From Synechococcus sp. (lineage in GTDB: Bacteria; Cyanobacteriota; Cyanobacteriia; Thermostichales; PCC-7336): DNA of 33,131 bases. Below, piece after piece: positions 18,001 to 24,000 of the stretch. The position numbers are program-made. Every line of letters begins with the position of its first letter. Position 1 is the first letter of the stretch. The stretch lies in contig JBFRWN010000119.1 in the NCBI GenBank assembly GCA_051439605.1, positions 1 to 33,131 on the forward strand. Direction: 5' to 3'.

Positions 18001-21000
18001 CGGGTTTCGTAGAGATCCACCTGGCAGTAGGGGTTAATCTCCAAAATGCGATCTTTGGCCGACTGGATTTTAGGCTTGCCCACCCAAGAGGTACCGTGGA
18101 TGATTTGGCGCTGCAGGTTAGAGGAATCAACAACGTCAAAATCTACCAAGCCCAGCCGACCAATACCGGCTGCCGCCAAGTAGAGGAGTAGGGGGGACCC
18201 TAAACCGCCGCTACCAATGCAGAGCACACTGGCAGCTTTCAATTTCTTTTGGCCTTCTAAGCCAACCTCGGGCAGGATTAGGTGGCGCGAAAAGCGCTCC
18301 ATTTCATCCCGAGACAGCTCCACTTGAGATGTGTCGTTCAACATGAGTTAGCAGCCTCCAGCGATAGAAGGAACGATACTGATGGTTTCATCACCAGTCA
18401 CAGGGGTTGCTTTACCCTGCTCTAGGTGTCGGATGTCCTCATCCCCCAGATACACGTTCACGAAGTTCCGCAGTTCGCCGTTCTCGTTGTAAAGATGGCG
18501 CTTGAGGTCGGAATAGGTGTTGGTGAGGTTATCGAGAATTTCTCCAACGGTATTGCCGTCGAGGTCCACACTGTCTTGGTTGCCAGTGTAGGCCCGTAGC
18601 GGGGTTGGAATCAGAACTTTTACAGCCATGATAGGAATCAGTCGATCGCAAGAGATAATTGTGTAAACGTTTGCCGAACTCTTTAAGAGTAAACAGTTTT
18701 GGCTCCAGAAACAGAGATTAAACCGATGCAGGTGAAAATCTGGAGGCCATCTTGACGGTTAGGCCGTCACAGGATCGCCAGTTTCGATGGTCTGCTCCAC
18801 ACACCGATCGCCCTCATCCAGCACCCAGCTACGCAGGTCCGCGGCTGCTTTGTCCATCACGCTAACAATGACGCAAGAATATCCCCAAGGGAAGGCGTGC
18901 TGGCGATCGAACTCTGAAGGAATTGCCGGATGGTTTGGGTGAGAGTGGTAGGTGCCAATCACCCCCAGCCCCTGTTCTCGGGCAGCATCGTATCCCCGCT
19001 TAAAATCAGCAGGCTCGATCAGAAAGCGGCGATTGATAGACTCCCCATCATCCACAGGGTTTTTTGCAGAATCCCAAGTGTTATCCACCGACCACAGCCC
19101 TTTAACCAGCTTATGTTCCTCCCCATCTCGCACCTCTATCTCCCCCAAAAGGAGGCCACAGCATTCCTGCGGGAAAGCACGTTCGCCGTGCTCTCGAATC
19201 GCAGCTTGCTGCTCGGAAGAGAGGTGTAAAATCATAAACCCGCCTATTCCGGTCGGAATACTGGACTTTAAACATTTTGACATGAAATCCAGGGCTTGTG
19301 GGATGCGATGTTGAGCATTCTTCTGTGTCAGTTACAATTTTGCTTTTCCAGCCAATAGTGTTGGCTAACCTTTCAGGGCTAGAAGCTGAATAGAGAACGC
19401 ACAAAGTCAATTACCGTTCTATCCACACGAAAGCCTCCAGCAGATCCGCCGGAGGCCACTCTGTAATGAGCTGCTCGTCAGCTCGGAATAAAGGCAATGA
19501 CAAACAGTTAAGAACTACTCTTCGTCTTCGTACTTATCTTCCTCACCCAACAAGACACTAATATCTTCCTCTTCGGGGCGCTCTTCAGTCACCAAATTGC
19601 TGTTTTCGATCAACCGTCCCTCAGAACGCAGCCAATCCAGGATGGACATGGTGTCTTTCGAAGGCACCGTTGGGGCTCGCATGCTGAGAGGTTGCTCTTG
19701 CAGAGATGGATTGTGCATTCTTCAGTCGAGTTTGCTATACAGCCTTCCTAGTCTACTGTAAGTTGAAGACTCATTTTCTAAGGCCGTGAAACTGTGTGCT
19801 TCTTCGAGAACAAAGAAACCGGTGGCCTAGTCTATTAAGCTGATTGGAACGGCACTAATCTATCGACTCGAGAAACGATCGCGAAATCCGAAACCAGAAC
19901 TATTCGTCATCACCCAGCTTGGGAATGTAATCAGGGCGCTCTGCGTTTTCCCACCCCGCAGGACGCTTGGAGTTGTACCAAGCCATCGACCCCAGCGTGA
20001 CTGCAGCAATAAAGCCTACGACTCCAAGAATAATAGGGGCTGCCGGAATATCGCCAAACATCATAATTTTGTCAGTCCTAATTAGGATATCTTTACTTTT
20101 TGCCAGTATCGCATGGCTGGCTTAATCGGAAGCTTGGCACCACAATTGGTCTACCGGCATCAGGCCTATCCACATGGGGCCTATTGATAGTATGCCAATC
20201 AATTCTCAGATGCTCCATGTTGCCCATCAACGTCTCCACTGCATCCTCTCTTAACCCACCCCCCGTTCACCATTGGCTCGTTGTTATTGCTTTGCTCGTC
20301 TTAGCATTTGGCTTGGGGGGCTTGCCTTTGCCTCGTTGGATTGTCCGCAGGATGGCAAAGGTAGATTTGCAGCAGTTAGGAACTGGGAACATCAGTGTTT
20401 CCGCAACGTTCAAACAGGTGGGAACCCAGGTCGGTGTTGTCGTTGTGCTAGCAGAAATTTTGCGCGGCATCATGCCGGTTTTGTTGGCAGCATGGCTGCT
20501 GCCCAATTGGCCTGCGGTGCAGATTGGAGTGCTGATATCGCTGGTGGTGGCTCGCTACGCGATCGCTAAAGGAGGAGGAGTCACCAATGCCACTTGGGGG
20601 GTACTGGTGTATTCGCCAATGACGGCTTTGCTATCTGCTGTAACGGGTTTGACCCTGTTGTGGATTGGCAGATGGGCGATTGGAGAACGGGCAATCGGAC
20701 TCAGTGAAATACACAGATCTGACGTCAGACGATGGGCCGCTCGCATGGGCTGTGCCAGCGGAGCCTTGTGGTTGGCCGTTTTGGAAAAAACTCCTGCAGA
20801 AATCTGGGCGGCTCTGGGGTTAGTGGGATTGTTGGTGTGGATCGATTTGCGTCAAAAGGATGATGTAATGGCTTTGGTTTCGCTCGATCGCCAGCTGAAC
20901 CCTGCCCAATATGGAGCAAAGGCTGCTCGACTTGCACAACTGCGAAGACTGGGGTTAAACGTTCCAAAGGGTTGGGGAGTGCTGAAGGAACAAAAGATCG

Positions 21001-24000
21001 ATATCAGCATCGCCCAGCAGGTTCAACCCAGTACGAATCACCCTTTGCTGGTGCGCTCGTCAGCCATTGAGGAAGACAGCGAGCAAAGCTCGGCAGCAGG
21101 ACAGTATCGAACGGTTGGTCCCGTGACGTCAGCTGCCGAATTATTGGCTGCAATTGAAGTTTGTCGAGCATCTTACGGCGATGGCGGCGCGATTGCCTAT
21201 CGTCAGAGCAGAGGCCTAGGCGAGACAGGTATGTCCGTTCTCATCCAGCGATATGTGACTGGGAAAGTTGCTGGGGTGGCTTTTAGCCGACACCCGTTGA
21301 ACGGAGCCGATTGCATTGTTGTGGAGGCGCTCCCGGGGGGGGCAGAGGCGGTGGTTGGGGGAACCCAGACTCCGGAGCATTTAGAGCTATCCCGAGAGGA
21401 ACGCGACGAACAGTCGGAGCAGGTCAAGGGGACGCTACTCCCAGCCGAGGTCTTGAAGGAGCTCGTCCAGTCGGTGCTAAAAATTGAGGACTGCTTTGAA
21501 GGGGTGCCCCAAGATGTGGAATGGATTTGGGATGGCGATCGCCTGTGGATCGTACAATCTCGCCCCATCTCCACATTGCAGCCCATTTGGACAAGAACCA
21601 TCGCCGCAGAAGTGATTCCGGGGGTCATCCATCCACTGACATGGTCGATCAATCAGCCACTGACCTGTGGGGTGTGGGGGAAGCTGTTCTCGCTGGTTTT
21701 GGGGCAGGGGGCAGAGGATTTGGACTTTAGCCAAACCGCGACATTGCTGGGCTCGCATGCTTATTTCAACGCAACCTTGCTGGGCACAATTTTTCGCCGT
21801 ATGGGCTTGCCCGAACAGGGGCTGGAATTTTTGTTGCGGGGGCAGAAGATGGGTAAGCCTCCTCTCCAAAGCACCCTCAGAAATATTCCAGGATTACTGC
21901 GTTTATTGGGGAAAGAGGGACAACTTCCTCAAGACTTTCATCGCGATCGGGTCGACTGCTTTGAACCGGCGATCGCTCAATTAGAATCTGTTGCGCTAGA
22001 GTCCCTCAACCCGACTGAGCTCTTGGCTCGCATCGATCGCATCTGCAATTGGCTGGTACCGGCCACGTATTACAACATTGTGGGTCCAATTGGGTTGGCG
22101 ATTCGCCGATCGCTGTTTAAAGTGCCGGATCGCTGGTTAAGCGATATCCCAACCCCGGAACTGGCGTCTCTGCGGGAACTAACGCAGTTGGCGGCGCAGC
22201 TAAGGAAGTTGGTTCCGGAGACCAACAGCCTAGATCCCTCTAGCAGTGAATTAAAGACCTTACTGTTAGAAACCCTCGTACGCGATCGGGAAATATCGAC
22301 GCAATTCGAGTGCTGGCTCGACCGCTTCGGCTATTTGAGTGAAGTCGGCACCGATATTGCCGTTCCCACCTGGAAGGAGTCCCCCGACAAACTGCGATCT
22401 CTGCTTTGTAGTCTGGCGATGCAGTCAGTTGACCAGCCCAATCTCCAACACCCTACTCAGCTGCTGCAGAAGTGGCGATTGCGTCAGTGTCGTGAACGGG
22501 CCGAACTGCAGGCCAAGGTGGATGAAATCTATGCCAAACTCCTGGCCCATCTGCGCTGGACATTTGTAGAACTGGAGCGACGAGGAATCGCGGCTGGCGA
22601 GTTTGAAAGGCCAGGGGACATTTTTCTGCTGGAATTGGCGGACGTGCAGGATTGGGTTGCTGGGAGCTTAGGCAGCATTCACTTGAGAACGTTGGTTGAG
22701 CGGCGTAAATCGCAGCTAGAGCGCGATCGCAGTCGAGAGATTCCGTTAGTGGTATACGGCGATCGGCTGCCACCCCCCGTTCACCGCGAGGTGGATAAAC
22801 GGGGGATGGCTGAAATGTACGGCATCCCAGCTAGCGGAGGGTGCGTCGAGGGGGTGGTGAAAATTTGTCGGACATTTGAATTTGCCGGAATAGAGCCTGG
22901 ATCTATTGTTGTAGTTCCCTACACGGATGCAGGCTGGGCTCCCTTGTTGGTCAACGCTGCCGCCATTGTGGCTGAGGTTGGAGGTCAGCTTTCCCATGGG
23001 GCTATTGTGGCTCGCGAGTACAAGATTCCTGCAGTAATGAACGTGCAGCAGGCCATGGCTCGGCTTCGCGATGGCCAGAGAGTGCGTGTGGATGGAGATC
23101 GCGGCATAGTTGAAATATGTCAGCCCTAGCTCTACTCACCCAAGTGCCGAGTTGGACGAGTCCCCGCAGTCTGCCCTGACATACCCGCATCAAGAGCGCC
23201 CTTCTATCCAAACCACCTGTAGATATAGTTGTCTCACCAAAAAGGACTGCCTGAAAAACAGGCAGCCCTTTGATTGAAACGATCAACTAGTAGCCGATCG
23301 CGTATCGAGCTCGAAAAGCATCAGCATGACTAGTTAGATAGGTTGCGGAACGCGAGCAGACATCACTTCAGCCAGCAGCTTAGCAACTTCGGGACGCGAG
23401 AACTCAGGGGGAGGAGTCTTGCCTTCACGCAGCATTGCTCTCACCTTCGTTCCAGACAGGTGGACACGATCTTCGGGACCAGCTGGGCTGGTTTTGCTGG
23501 TCGCCATAGTTCCAGTCTTTTTGCAGAAGAACGCATGCTCGAACTTCAGAGGGGTAATCCCCAGTTCACCAGGCTCGAACTCATCAAAAATGTGCTGAGC
23601 ATCGTAGGTACCGTAGTAGTCGCCAACACCCGCATGATCGCGACCCACAATGAAGTGAGTGCAACCGTAGTTCTTACGAATCAATGCGTGGAAGATGGCT
23701 TCGCGGGGACCCGCGTAGCGCATAGCAGAAGGATTGATTGCCAGAGTAACGCGATCCTGAGGGAAGTAATGCTCCATCATGATCTCGTAGCACTGCATGC
23801 GGACATCGGCAGGAATATCATCGCTCTTGGTTGCCCCCACCAGAGGATGCAGGAACAAACCATCAACCACTTCCAATGCGCACTTTTGAATGTACTCGTG
23901 GGCGCGGTGGATGGGGTTGCGGGTTTGGAAACCAACGACGGTCTTCCAACCCTTCTCGACAAACAAAGCGCGAGAGGCAGCAGGGTCAATTTGATAAGTA

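Follow-up and report, generated by a model that had tools for sequence, protein, structure and literature searches.

An intact cyanobacterial gene that joins a PlsY-fold membrane domain to an RPH-type dikinase

What does a protein do that carries the fold of the acyltransferase PlsY in the membrane and a dikinase of the rifampin phosphotransferase (RPH) type outside it? We examined such a fusion in Synechococcus sp., in a 33,131-nucleotide stretch of DNA (the window). A first-pass annotation had described a seven-helix PlsY-like N terminus followed by a complete RPH-type part, and our analysis bears this out. The gene is intact and encodes a PlsY fold and then ATP-grasp, RPH-type acceptor, and swiveling-His domains. 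The fusion and its neighbors are as follows.

19515..19718, minus strand: small DUF3134 gene behind psb35
19900..20064, minus strand: psb35, photosystem II assembly factor (NF047378, 88.6 bits; cut-off, 40), head-to-head with the fusion and the genome's only copy
20217..23129, plus strand: fusion gene (P0001), 970 aa, ATG start, no internal stop
20265..20864, plus strand: seven-helix PlsY-fold membrane domain, residues ~17 to 216
20865..21581, plus strand: ATP-grasp domain, residues ~217 to 455
21582..22781, plus strand: helical RPH-type acceptor domain, residues ~456 to 855, with E465 at the position of RPH Q337
22800..23120, plus strand: swiveling phosphohistidine domain, with the His927 codon at 22995 to 22997

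Upstream of the ATG, the frame is open back to a TTG at 20100. We disfavored this start because only ~35 bp would then separate the fusion from the divergent psb35 start (20064). The alignment with a near-identical database protein (P0122, 98%) begins at residue 1 of the 970-aa form. We reproduced the annotated Pfam matches with slightly different E values: G3P_acyltransf at residues 30 to 153 (E 1.6e-14; 54.7 bits against a cut-off of 24.1), PPDK_N at 268 to 455 (E 1.7e-38), and PEP-utilizers at 892 to 963 (E 6.8e-23). We found 1530 homologues at E<=1e-10 among 8000 scored. Our AlphaFold2 model, built with 82 sequences, upheld the fold of the earlier one and supersedes its quality scores (pLDDT of 90.8 and pTM of 0.82, previously 75 and 0.56). 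Its N terminus has seven membrane-length helices plus two short PlsY helices. Foldseek matched the model to RPH (5hv1; E 1.1e-27) and to PlsY (5xj5 and 5xj7; E 7e-6 and 1.7e-5; TM to target, 0.75 to 0.77). VIA-align superposed model residues 20 to 215 on residues 0 to 182 of the 5xj7 chain (Z 18.4; rmsd 2.7; 178 aligned). Against 5hv1, Z was 26.7 with an rmsd of 18.3 over 669 residues, the domain arrangement being different.

To compare the membrane domain with PlsY residue by residue, we aligned 64 members of the fusion family with 40 canonical PlsY proteins. The acyl-phosphate site of PlsY consists of backbone 104 to 107, His92, Thr41, and Asn37; Asn37 stabilizes the oxyanion and contacts neither substrate (PMC5700162). 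We found that Asn37 is kept as N58 and Gly105 as G121 (60/64 each) and that His92 has become R113 (62/64). Asn58 is present in all 73 intact rows. Ser35 is Thr in 58/64 members, and Thr41 is Ser in 46/64 and Ala in 14/64; the same changes leave PlsY with 17% (S35T), 45% (T41S), and ~5% (T41A) of its activity (PMC5700162).

The glycerol-3-phosphate (G3P) side is different. In PlsY, the ligands of G3P are Arg45, Lys104, Ser142, His177, and Asn180; its phosphate is clamped by Ser35, Arg45, Lys104, and Asn180, and its 2-OH is bound by Ser142 and His177 (PMC5700162). Five of these six residues are lost family-wide. Among the 64 members, Arg45 is replaced by Tyr (34), Thr (8), or Leu (4), and by Lys in the window's copy; Lys104 by Ala (33) or Gly (26); His177 by Tyr (26), Asn (21), or Asp (6); and Asn180 by Gln (24), Ile (23), or Met (7). 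The Ser142 column is variable, and about five residues before the phosphate loop are deleted relative to PlsY. Activity remaining in PlsY is ~1% for R45A, 6% for R45K, 7% for K104A, 0.03% for H177Y, and 2% for N180Q (PMC5700162). The membrane domain matches PlsY with an hhalign probability of 99.7, and the fusion scores 31.0 bits against TIGR00023 (PlsY), whose curated cut-off is 137.2.

The domain retains T56, N58, S62, E80, R113, and G121, and T123, N124, W127, D215, and D216 are new; the new polar residues are near-invariant in the family. The conserved residues listed by the first-pass annotation all recur in our alignments, including those of its three altered PlsY motifs; the His177/Asn180 motif, which it left out, is gone. 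Judged by its residues, the fusion is not a G3P acyltransferase. In the same comparison, the domain keeps, in altered form, the acyl-phosphate-handling half of PlsY (Asn37, the phosphate hole, and His92 as Arg) and may still bind such a ligand. Selection on the polar site supports a role beyond that of an anchor and speaks against the earlier suggestion of a mere anchor.

The rest of the protein has the RPH architecture of ATP-grasp, acceptor, and C-terminal swivel-His domains. K235, R280, E435, Q447, and R449 correspond to RPH K22, R117, E297, Q309, and R311, with K235 assigned by motif position rather than from a printed alignment. Not all fusion members have Thr at the position of RPH Thr136. 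By helix register, the RPH triad R666-E667-x-x-K670 falls on positions 765 (K67/Q5/R1 of 73 rows), 766 (G54/A10/N7/S2), and 769 (T34/A25/S6/D4); Q/K765 and A/G766 occupy the first two. HMMER instead places Arg666-Glu667 in an insertion, and Glu is absent in both readings. Glu667 is essential for the second transfer in RPH (PMC4844700), so the chemistry of the middle domain must differ. With Glu667 absent, the fusion is not an RPH either, and it scores 199.1 bits against NF041857 (RPH; curated cut-off, 999).

Databases name these proteins glycerol-3-phosphate acyltransferase or pyruvate,water dikinase, and both labels fail their defining tests. We rejected the PEP synthase/pyruvate,water dikinase label because the His domain is C-terminal rather than central, there is no Pfam barrel, and the TIGR01418 score is 152.6 bits against 739.75.

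We found the fusion gene in 87 of the 111 genomes sampled from the class Cyanobacteriia, as a single copy with mostly vertical inheritance. Among cyanobacteria with larger genomes, the gene is close to core; the 24 sampled genomes in which it was not found are mostly small, which may be why it is unstudied. It was likewise not found in a small-genome family (f18; 0/11), and none of 72,556 plasmid records covered 80% of the protein. When we searched with a profile of the membrane domain and, separately, with the middle region, the named matches among the 120 listed carried cyanobacterial-phylum labels, save one doubly labeled record. Once ~45 family matches had been passed, a representative search turned up PlsY proteins, canonical or other, and the only Atlas clusters matched were those of the family itself and generic RPH-like ones. 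We saw no PlsY-like neighbor at 20 RPH-like loci (18 from other classes of the phylum) and no adjoining dikinase at 15 metagenome loci, several of them short, of one remodeled PlsY (P0189). Within the narrow scope of these searches, no relative from outside the cyanobacteria was confirmed.

Three results are new here: the joint decay of two sites, a selected His-less form, and a link to psb35. We scored nine polar membrane-site residues in 83 full-length rows: 71 rows kept them all, 2 had a single change, and 10 had at least two. At least 3 of 12 middle-domain residues were missing in 10/10 of these decayed rows versus 1/73 of the others, with the decay spread over about six separate branches. 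Because these sets were picked for being conserved, part of their invariance was built in, and a single gene under general relaxation would also show such co-decay. In 73/83 rows, His927 is kept along with almost every catalytic residue in the other domains. Three copies from one lineage (f20) lack the His (now Gln), Lys22, the GTGN loop, and the DD pair. Their dN/dS is 0.057 to 0.079 (flanking genes, 0.045 to 0.073), and their modeled form has all four domains (pLDDT, 79.0; pTM, 0.58). The His-less form is under strong purifying selection, which suggests that the protein also has a noncatalytic role. Elsewhere, several decayed copies have lost both substrate sites ahead of the ATP-grasp motifs.

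Across the 111 genomes, 87 have both the fusion and psb35, none has the fusion only, 6 have psb35 only, and 18 have neither. Part of this correlation comes from kinship and genome size: in one set of 55 genomes, counts were 37/37 versus 6/18 for psb35 and 36/37 versus 10/18 for the control family OCP/HCP. Informative co-absences are few (G195, G201, G111, G053, and G119). A psb35-like match in G195 (E 0.11) proved on inspection not to be psb35. The genes are head-to-head at 63/86 short-linker loci and 0/74 long-linker loci, the psb35-adjacent loci being mostly from one genus, duplicates included. The head-to-head loci include the window's Synechococcus and Microcoleus/Planktothrix, which RpoB does not group closely, and the adjacency may reflect one joint transfer. 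By its association with psb35, the fusion may act in the turnover of lipids or pigments while photosystem II is assembled and repaired.

The wider neighborhood was not consistent, and we rejected an operon context. At 66 loci from ~25 lineages, no neighbor beyond generic histidine kinases and pentapeptide and WD40 proteins spanned more than three families; these scans ignored genes under 80 aa and so missed psb35. The DUF3134 gene recurs only at the nearest relative locus (L006), with one further match ~3 kb off (L204). Promoter and terminator scans stayed at chance level. kaiC lies within 4 kb of the fusion in three families, and an ArnT/PMT-type glycosyltransferase gene lies directly downstream on the same strand (-10 to +55 bp) in three families; neither is decisive. 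A DAGK-domain gene lies downstream at three loci.

As annotated earlier, the genome also carries ordinary PlsX and PlsY. Its two long-chain acyl-ligase-like genes, both below curated cut-offs, could already recycle fatty acids; a search of this genome for DegV/FakB found none. We rejected the idea that the fusion stands in for a known kinase or acyltransferase: DgkA (51/51), phytol-kinase-like (51/51), and DUF92 (55/55) genes occur in every genome tested, fusion present or absent. PF01148 did not resolve phytol kinase. Glycerol kinase occurs in 19/28 fusion-intact, 5/5 decayed, and 7/18 lacking genomes, and a DAGAT-like gene in 21/28, 5/5, and 9/18. We also set aside acyl-plastoquinol synthesis as the role, since slr2103 already accounts for it in the portion of PMC11973298 available to us.

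We tentatively favor a membrane-bound enzyme, probably of the thylakoid, with two working sites, in which ATP-driven activation of a lipophilic substrate would be followed by transfer to a nonphosphorylated acceptor. ATP bound in the ATP-grasp domain would phosphorylate His927 with release of AMP and Pi as in RPH, a step strongly indicated by homology and intact residues. The swivel domain would then carry the phosphate to a conserved middle-domain pocket and phosphorylate the substrate, at best guess a fatty acid or other carboxylate that becomes an acyl-phosphate. The PlsY-fold domain, with its acyl-phosphate hole and oxyanion Asn kept and its cationic G3P clamp replaced by neutral and acidic residues, may bind this product and transfer the acyl group to a phosphate-free acceptor (candidates are a lyso-galactolipid, a prenyl or pigment alcohol, or an amine). 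Of the earlier proposal of a self-contained lipid enzyme, the intact His-relay module and the selected polar site stand; G3P acylation does not. Indolmycin Ind3 activates a carboxylate, and there is a PlsY-like carotenoid acyltransferase; our literature search turned up neither, and we did not use them as support.

A precedent in this dikinase class is HapC, which phosphorylates an aldehyde before condensation in the part of PMC13534948 at hand. Described RPH-type enzymes act on an alcohol (RPH; PMC4844700) or phenols (HpeHI; PMC12167813); our literature search found none acting on a carboxylate, which counts against the favored reading, as do the missing Glu667, Ala at Thr41 in 14/64 members, and the genome's long-chain acyl-ligase-like genes. 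The fullest version of that reading, unlikely as a whole, is a CoA- and ACP-independent re-acylase that converts ATP to AMP via phosphohistidine, makes acyl-phosphate from fatty acids that photosystem II turnover sets free, and uses the rebuilt PlsY site to put them back on lyso-galactolipids (or a prenyl or pigment alcohol), co-regulated with Psb35; in some lineages, a catalytically dead version would persist in a structural or sensing role.

Possibly, instead, the dikinase only phosphorylates a lipophilic alcohol, a phenol or quinol, or a lipid monophosphate, as its characterized relatives phosphorylate hydroxyls or phenols, and there is no acyl transfer. The PlsY fold would then present the substrate or hold the product in the old phosphate hole and groove (R113, K/R83, and K/R118, with D215/D216 as possible Mg ligands). 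That hole fits any lipid phosphate, and the downstream ArnT/PMT-type and DAGK-domain genes agree with such a kinase. However, the oxyanion Asn is kept in every intact row, and every genome tested has the DAG kinase, phytol-kinase-like, and DUF92 genes, whatever its fusion status. It is rather improbable that the protein is mainly a regulator or scaffold (a nucleotide or lipid sensor or a His-phosphorelay to a protein) tied to photosystem II assembly, with catalysis secondary. The selected His-less copies, the outlasting ATP-grasp motifs, and psb35 point that way, but catalytic residues kept in 73/83 rows are hard to explain without catalysis. We consider it quite improbable that the fusion is an anchored kinase detoxifying hydrophobic antibiotics or allelochemicals: RPH is the closest structure and family f18 lacks a detected copy, but single-copy, mostly vertical inheritance, the plasmid result, the low RPH score, and a conserved polar membrane site left unexplained argue against it. 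Least of all do we expect a PlsX bypass that makes lysophosphatidic acid from free fatty acid and G3P via acyl-phosphate, which the domain logic and the lack of DegV/FakB matches would allow, since four G3P positions have changed together where single changes cripple PlsY (PMC5700162) and canonical PlsY and PlsX are present.

Our literature search found neither an RPH-type enzyme that works on a carboxylate nor a PlsY-fold enzyme with a non-G3P acceptor; if acyl activation and transfer are confirmed, the fusion would be the first of each in that search, and it would provide an ACP- and CoA-free route to re-acylate thylakoid lipids. The psb35 link gives a handle through photosystem II repair phenotypes, and the dead form that is conserved serves as a natural control separating catalytic from structural function.

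Among known systems, RPH-Lm (5FBS/5FBT/5FBU, 5HV1-3; NF041857; PMC4844700) is the best structural match and shares the domain order, ATP-binding residues, and His; the fusion adds the seven-helix domain and breaks R666-E667-x-x-K670, at 18 to 23% identity. PlsY (PF02660, TIGR00023; 5XJ5-9; PMC5700162) shares the fold, Asn37, Gly105, and a hydroxyl at 35 and mostly at 41. The fusion differs in lacking the G3P clamp and His177, in having Arg for His92 and the new T123-N124, W127, and D215-D216, and in its dikinase. The prodiginine ligases PigC, HapC, and RedH are, in the portion of PMC13534948 available, three-domain dikinases that activate a carbonyl by phosphorylation before condensation; the fusion adds a membrane domain, has no biosynthetic cluster around it, and falls far below NF052631 (188.4 versus 1300 bits) and NF052632 (183.0 versus 1350). 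The phenol kinases HpeHI, CreHI, and PpsAB (9GOJ; PMC12167813) have homologous ATP-grasp and swivel/acceptor domains and small hydrophobic substrates but are split into two components, soluble, and catabolic, with no PlsY-fold partner. FakAB feeding PlsY, as far as the accessible part of PMC10146087 describes it, would be analogous in function if the fusion makes acyl-phosphate, although its folds are unrelated and it supplies a canonical, G3P-binding PlsY.

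The open reading frame at 20217-23129 (+) is unbroken and encodes 970 residues. We found three Pfam domains over their cut-offs:

residues 30-153, G3P_acyltransf
residues 268-455, PPDK_N
residues 892-963, PEP-utilizers

We modelled the protein with AlphaFold2, using 82 family sequences as input (pLDDT 90.8, pTM 0.82). Aquifex PlsY (5xj7) superposed on model residues 20-215 with Z 18.4 and rmsd 2.7 over 178 residues. The best match of residues 217-969 was Listeria rifampin phosphotransferase (RPH; Foldseek E 1.1e-27, Z 26.7), with an rmsd of 18 because the domains are arranged differently. 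The Pfam domains, model, superposition and Foldseek match agree, and they confirm the fusion of a PlsY fold to an RPH-type enzyme described in the first-pass annotation. Its statement that the genome also has ordinary PlsY and PlsX holds as well, since we found, besides the fusion, a canonical PlsY whose motifs are intact, and a PlsX. DegV/FakB was looked for in the source genome and was not found. In another assembly, a 98-99% identical gene on a 52,054-bp contig appears split into 163-aa and 794-aa proteins (P0002/P0122), probably by an erroneous frameshift or by a break particular to that strain. Unlike that gene, the window copy is intact.

Matches at E<=1e-20 occurred in 104 of 251 genomes of the phylum. 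The fusion was found in 87 of the 111 genomes of the class, its own included (best E 5.9e-35 or lower in the family tallies), and among the 140 genomes of other classes there are 17 matches, which all begin past the membrane domain. We did not find the fusion in the other 24 genomes of the class, including 11/11 of the small-genome family f18 and 5/5 of genus g9; a family search of five of these 24 found in each a single gene of the PlsY family, and no gene with a His domain that was as long as the fusion. Most families stay together in a FastTree tree of 85 rows, so the gene has mostly been passed on vertically. The family splits into two subtypes by the length of the linker that follows the membrane domain (short or long). 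The source-genome copy clusters with Microcoleus, Planktothrix and Lyngbya copies (support 1.0) and is 51-54% identical to those of family f3 versus 35-48% to other families outside f20 (full-length and main matches). By RpoB, f3 is not closer to the source genome (79-82% versus 78-84%), and this discrepancy suggests transfer or ancient paralogy. We also noted 591-594-aa paralogues (L123:6329-8104 in genome G247, and P0151) that have the membrane, ATP-grasp and swivel domains but lack the middle domain, and whose motifs are decayed. In P0151 the His is replaced by Asn, and G247 carries a full intact fusion besides its short paralogue.

According to the PlsY structural paper (PMC5700162), the glycerol-3-phosphate (G3P) phosphate is bound by Ser35, Arg45, Lys104 and Asn180 and its 2-OH by Ser142 and His177. 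Acyl-phosphate is bound by the backbone amides of 104-107, His92 and Thr41; the residue that stabilises the oxyanion is Asn37. We aligned 64 family members (left after thinning 257 full-length hits at 72% identity) with 40 canonical PlsY proteins and transferred the Aquifex numbering via the genome's own PlsY and the 5xj5 alignment. In the 64 members we found that Arg45 (Y34, T8, L4), Lys104 (A33, G26), His177 (Y26, N21, D6), Asn180 (Q24, I23, M7) and Ser142 are lost. Asn37 and Gly105 are kept (60/64 each), and four changes are conservative: Ser35 to Thr (58/64), Thr41 to Ser (46/64) or Ala (14/64), His92 to Arg (62/64), and Asp to Glu80 (63/64). Newly conserved are Thr123 and Asn124 (59/64 each), Trp127 (61/64), Asp215 (60/64) and Asp216 (57/64), the last at the PlsY Arg183 position; the C-terminal register is uncertain, with hhalign and MAFFT differing by 1-2 residues. 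The C-terminal stretch of the 64 members has no conserved His or Asn except Asn210 of the short-linker subtype. This pattern suggests that the family keeps, with some alterations, the donor half of the PlsY site, and that the acceptor half, cationic in PlsY, was remade with neutral or acidic residues.

A separate remodelled PlsY subfamily without the HxxN motif was seen at 15 loci (L220-L234, query P0189), none with a dikinase nearby. Two of them (L222 and L226) have a DegV-like gene, recognised from sequence, about 2.5 kb upstream, and L225 has a tandem pair. In P0213 a PlsY with canonical motifs is fused to a soluble domain of 370 residues, acyl-ACP-reductase-like by eye.

In the dikinase part, K235, R280, E435, Q447, R449 and H927 align with the catalytic set of RPH and HapC described in PMC4844700 and PMC13534948. 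In the acceptor domain, E465 aligns with RPH Gln337. We placed RPH Arg666, Glu667 and Lys670 at positions 765, 766 and 769 by counting back from D801=D702, G794=G695 and R780=K681; the 73 intact rows have K67/Q5/R1, G54/A10/N7/S2 and T34/A25/S6/D4 there. Glu667, essential in RPH according to PMC4844700, has no counterpart in the fusion, which argues that its acceptor chemistry differs from that of RPH. Columns conserved at >=95% make up 20% of the middle domain, 21% of the ATP-grasp domain and 13% of the membrane domain; since it matches the ATP-grasp domain in conservation, the middle domain is probably a real substrate site. The fusion reaches no NCBIfam cut-off. RPH-like proteins of about 1100 aa in other classes of the phylum (L156, L157, L158) begin with an extra 260-300 residues that match no Pfam family and do not resemble PlsY, and at L170 an RPH-like enzyme is fused to a class III aminotransferase.

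We counted residue losses in 83 full-length rows, excluding the two 591-594-aa paralogues; the split copy L209 and the long-insert copy L083 were left out of the alignment. All nine polar membrane-site residues were intact in 71/83 rows, one was changed in 2/83, and two or more in 10/83. At least 3 of 12 middle-domain residues were missing in 10/10 membrane-decayed rows versus 1/73 others, a co-decay of small statistical weight since the residue sets were drawn from conserved columns and the rows include non-independent kin. Rows that have lost at least two ATP-grasp residues number 6, and all of them are among these 10. Co-decay recurs on about six branches, and in several decayed copies the ATP-grasp motifs remain after both substrate sites are gone.

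Three copies of family f20 (G117, G157 and G175; 900 aa) have Gln for His and lack the Lys22 equivalent, the GTGN loop and the DD pair. They lie at:

L116:6553-9255 (G157), His-less fusion orthologue
L207 (G117), the same
L208 (G175), the same

Their pairwise dN/dS was 0.057-0.079, and seven orthologue pairs with intact copies gave 0.10-0.23; the two flanking genes gave 0.045-0.073. One modelled copy has all four domains (pLDDT 79.0, pTM 0.58). The gene sits, translationally coupled, between one for a class I/II aminotransferase and one of ArnT/PMT type, with kaiABC 2-4 kb away. Such strong purifying selection on a dead form shows that there is a non-catalytic function, at least in this lineage.

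Across lineages, we found no conserved operon around the fusion. Lipid-flavoured neighbours recur inside lineages: GDSL lipase genes head-to-head in 12 loci of family f7 (one, tested whole, scored 45 bits) and in 7 further loci (6/7 Lyngbya-type and downstream), a DAGK-domain gene in 3 loci, an LmeA-like gene in 36, mostly Microcoleus, and a coupled downstream ArnT/PMT-type gene in three families. In three families kaiC or kaiABC is no more than 4 kb from the fusion (L010, L011, L014, L028, L087/L171, L116, L128), in one of them immediately upstream (21-143 bp, same strand). The window also holds:

2792-4466 (+), papain-family protease gene followed directly by a chagasin-family (I42) inhibitor gene
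17178-19283 (-), JAB peptidase, ThiS/MoaD-like protein and MoeB operon
19515-20064 (-), DUF3134 gene (67 aa) and psb35 (54 aa), between the JAB-domain gene and the fusion
23334-24521 (-), sulfate adenylyltransferase, on the other side of the fusion from the JAB operon
30356-33122 (-), two ORFs (304 aa and at least 546 aa) at the contig end, with no Pfam or NCBIfam match over cut-off

The JAB/ThiS/MoeB genes and sulfate adenylyltransferase are an ordinary sulfur-transfer neighbourhood, common to L006. The protease pair lies in an AT-richer stretch (1-7000, GC 0.37-0.46), and 32001-33000 has a strong AT skew.

The genome's only psb35 (NF047378, 88.6 bits, cut-off 40) stands head-to-head with the fusion, across a gap of 152 bp. 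Gene callers with a length floor easily overlook it and the DUF3134 gene, and length filters dropped psb35 here. This arrangement occurs in 63/86 short-linker and 0/74 long-linker loci; the count includes duplicates, draws mostly on Microcoleus, and leaves aside 8 loci whose flanks were short or that had no N-terminal match. Among the 111 genomes, 87 have fusion and psb35, none the fusion only, 6 psb35 only and 18 neither. Controls temper this co-occurrence: in two groups of 37 and 18 genomes (55 of the 111), OCP/HCP was present in 36/37 and 10/18 and psb35 in 37/37 and 6/18. One family accounts for eleven of the 18 double absences, and two more are genomes with broken psbB/psbC. G195 (6.9 Mb) and G201 lack both genes, yet have psbB/psbC, Psb28 and OCP; 11 sampled members of the G195 family all have both. 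According to a review (PMC9145668), Psb35 binds to the pre-complex of CP47, whose association with HliA/HliB it stabilises. We take the psb35 link not as proof but as a lead toward the thylakoid and the assembly or repair of photosystem II.

We tentatively favour ATP-driven activation of a lipophilic substrate followed by transfer to an acceptor without phosphate. ATP would yield His927-P, AMP and Pi; the substrate, a carboxylate in the simplest case, would be phosphorylated in the middle domain; and the activated group would pass to the acceptor in the PlsY-fold site. The main argument for the transfer step is the retained oxyanion Asn. In photosystem II repair, fatty acids and lyso-galactolipids are set free. 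A plain membrane kinase with a lipid-phosphate-binding domain, which would dispense with transfer, is possible but doubtful. A regulator or scaffold is unlikely. A detoxifying kinase like RPH is improbable. Acylation of G3P with acyl-phosphate made from fatty acid, the narrow form of the first-pass reading, is very improbable given the five lost ligands.

Our literature search found no publication on a PlsY-dikinase fusion, only papers on its separate parts or on unrelated topics; supplementary transcriptome or proteome tables might list the genes by locus tag. The enzyme is apparently unstudied so far. Taken together, the sequence data indicate a real, widespread, misannotated enzyme of two known folds in which both substrate sites appear rebuilt. 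HapC is an example of this dikinase class activating a carbonyl for a second step (PMC13534948). The fusion belongs among the RPH-type dikinases as a new variant.
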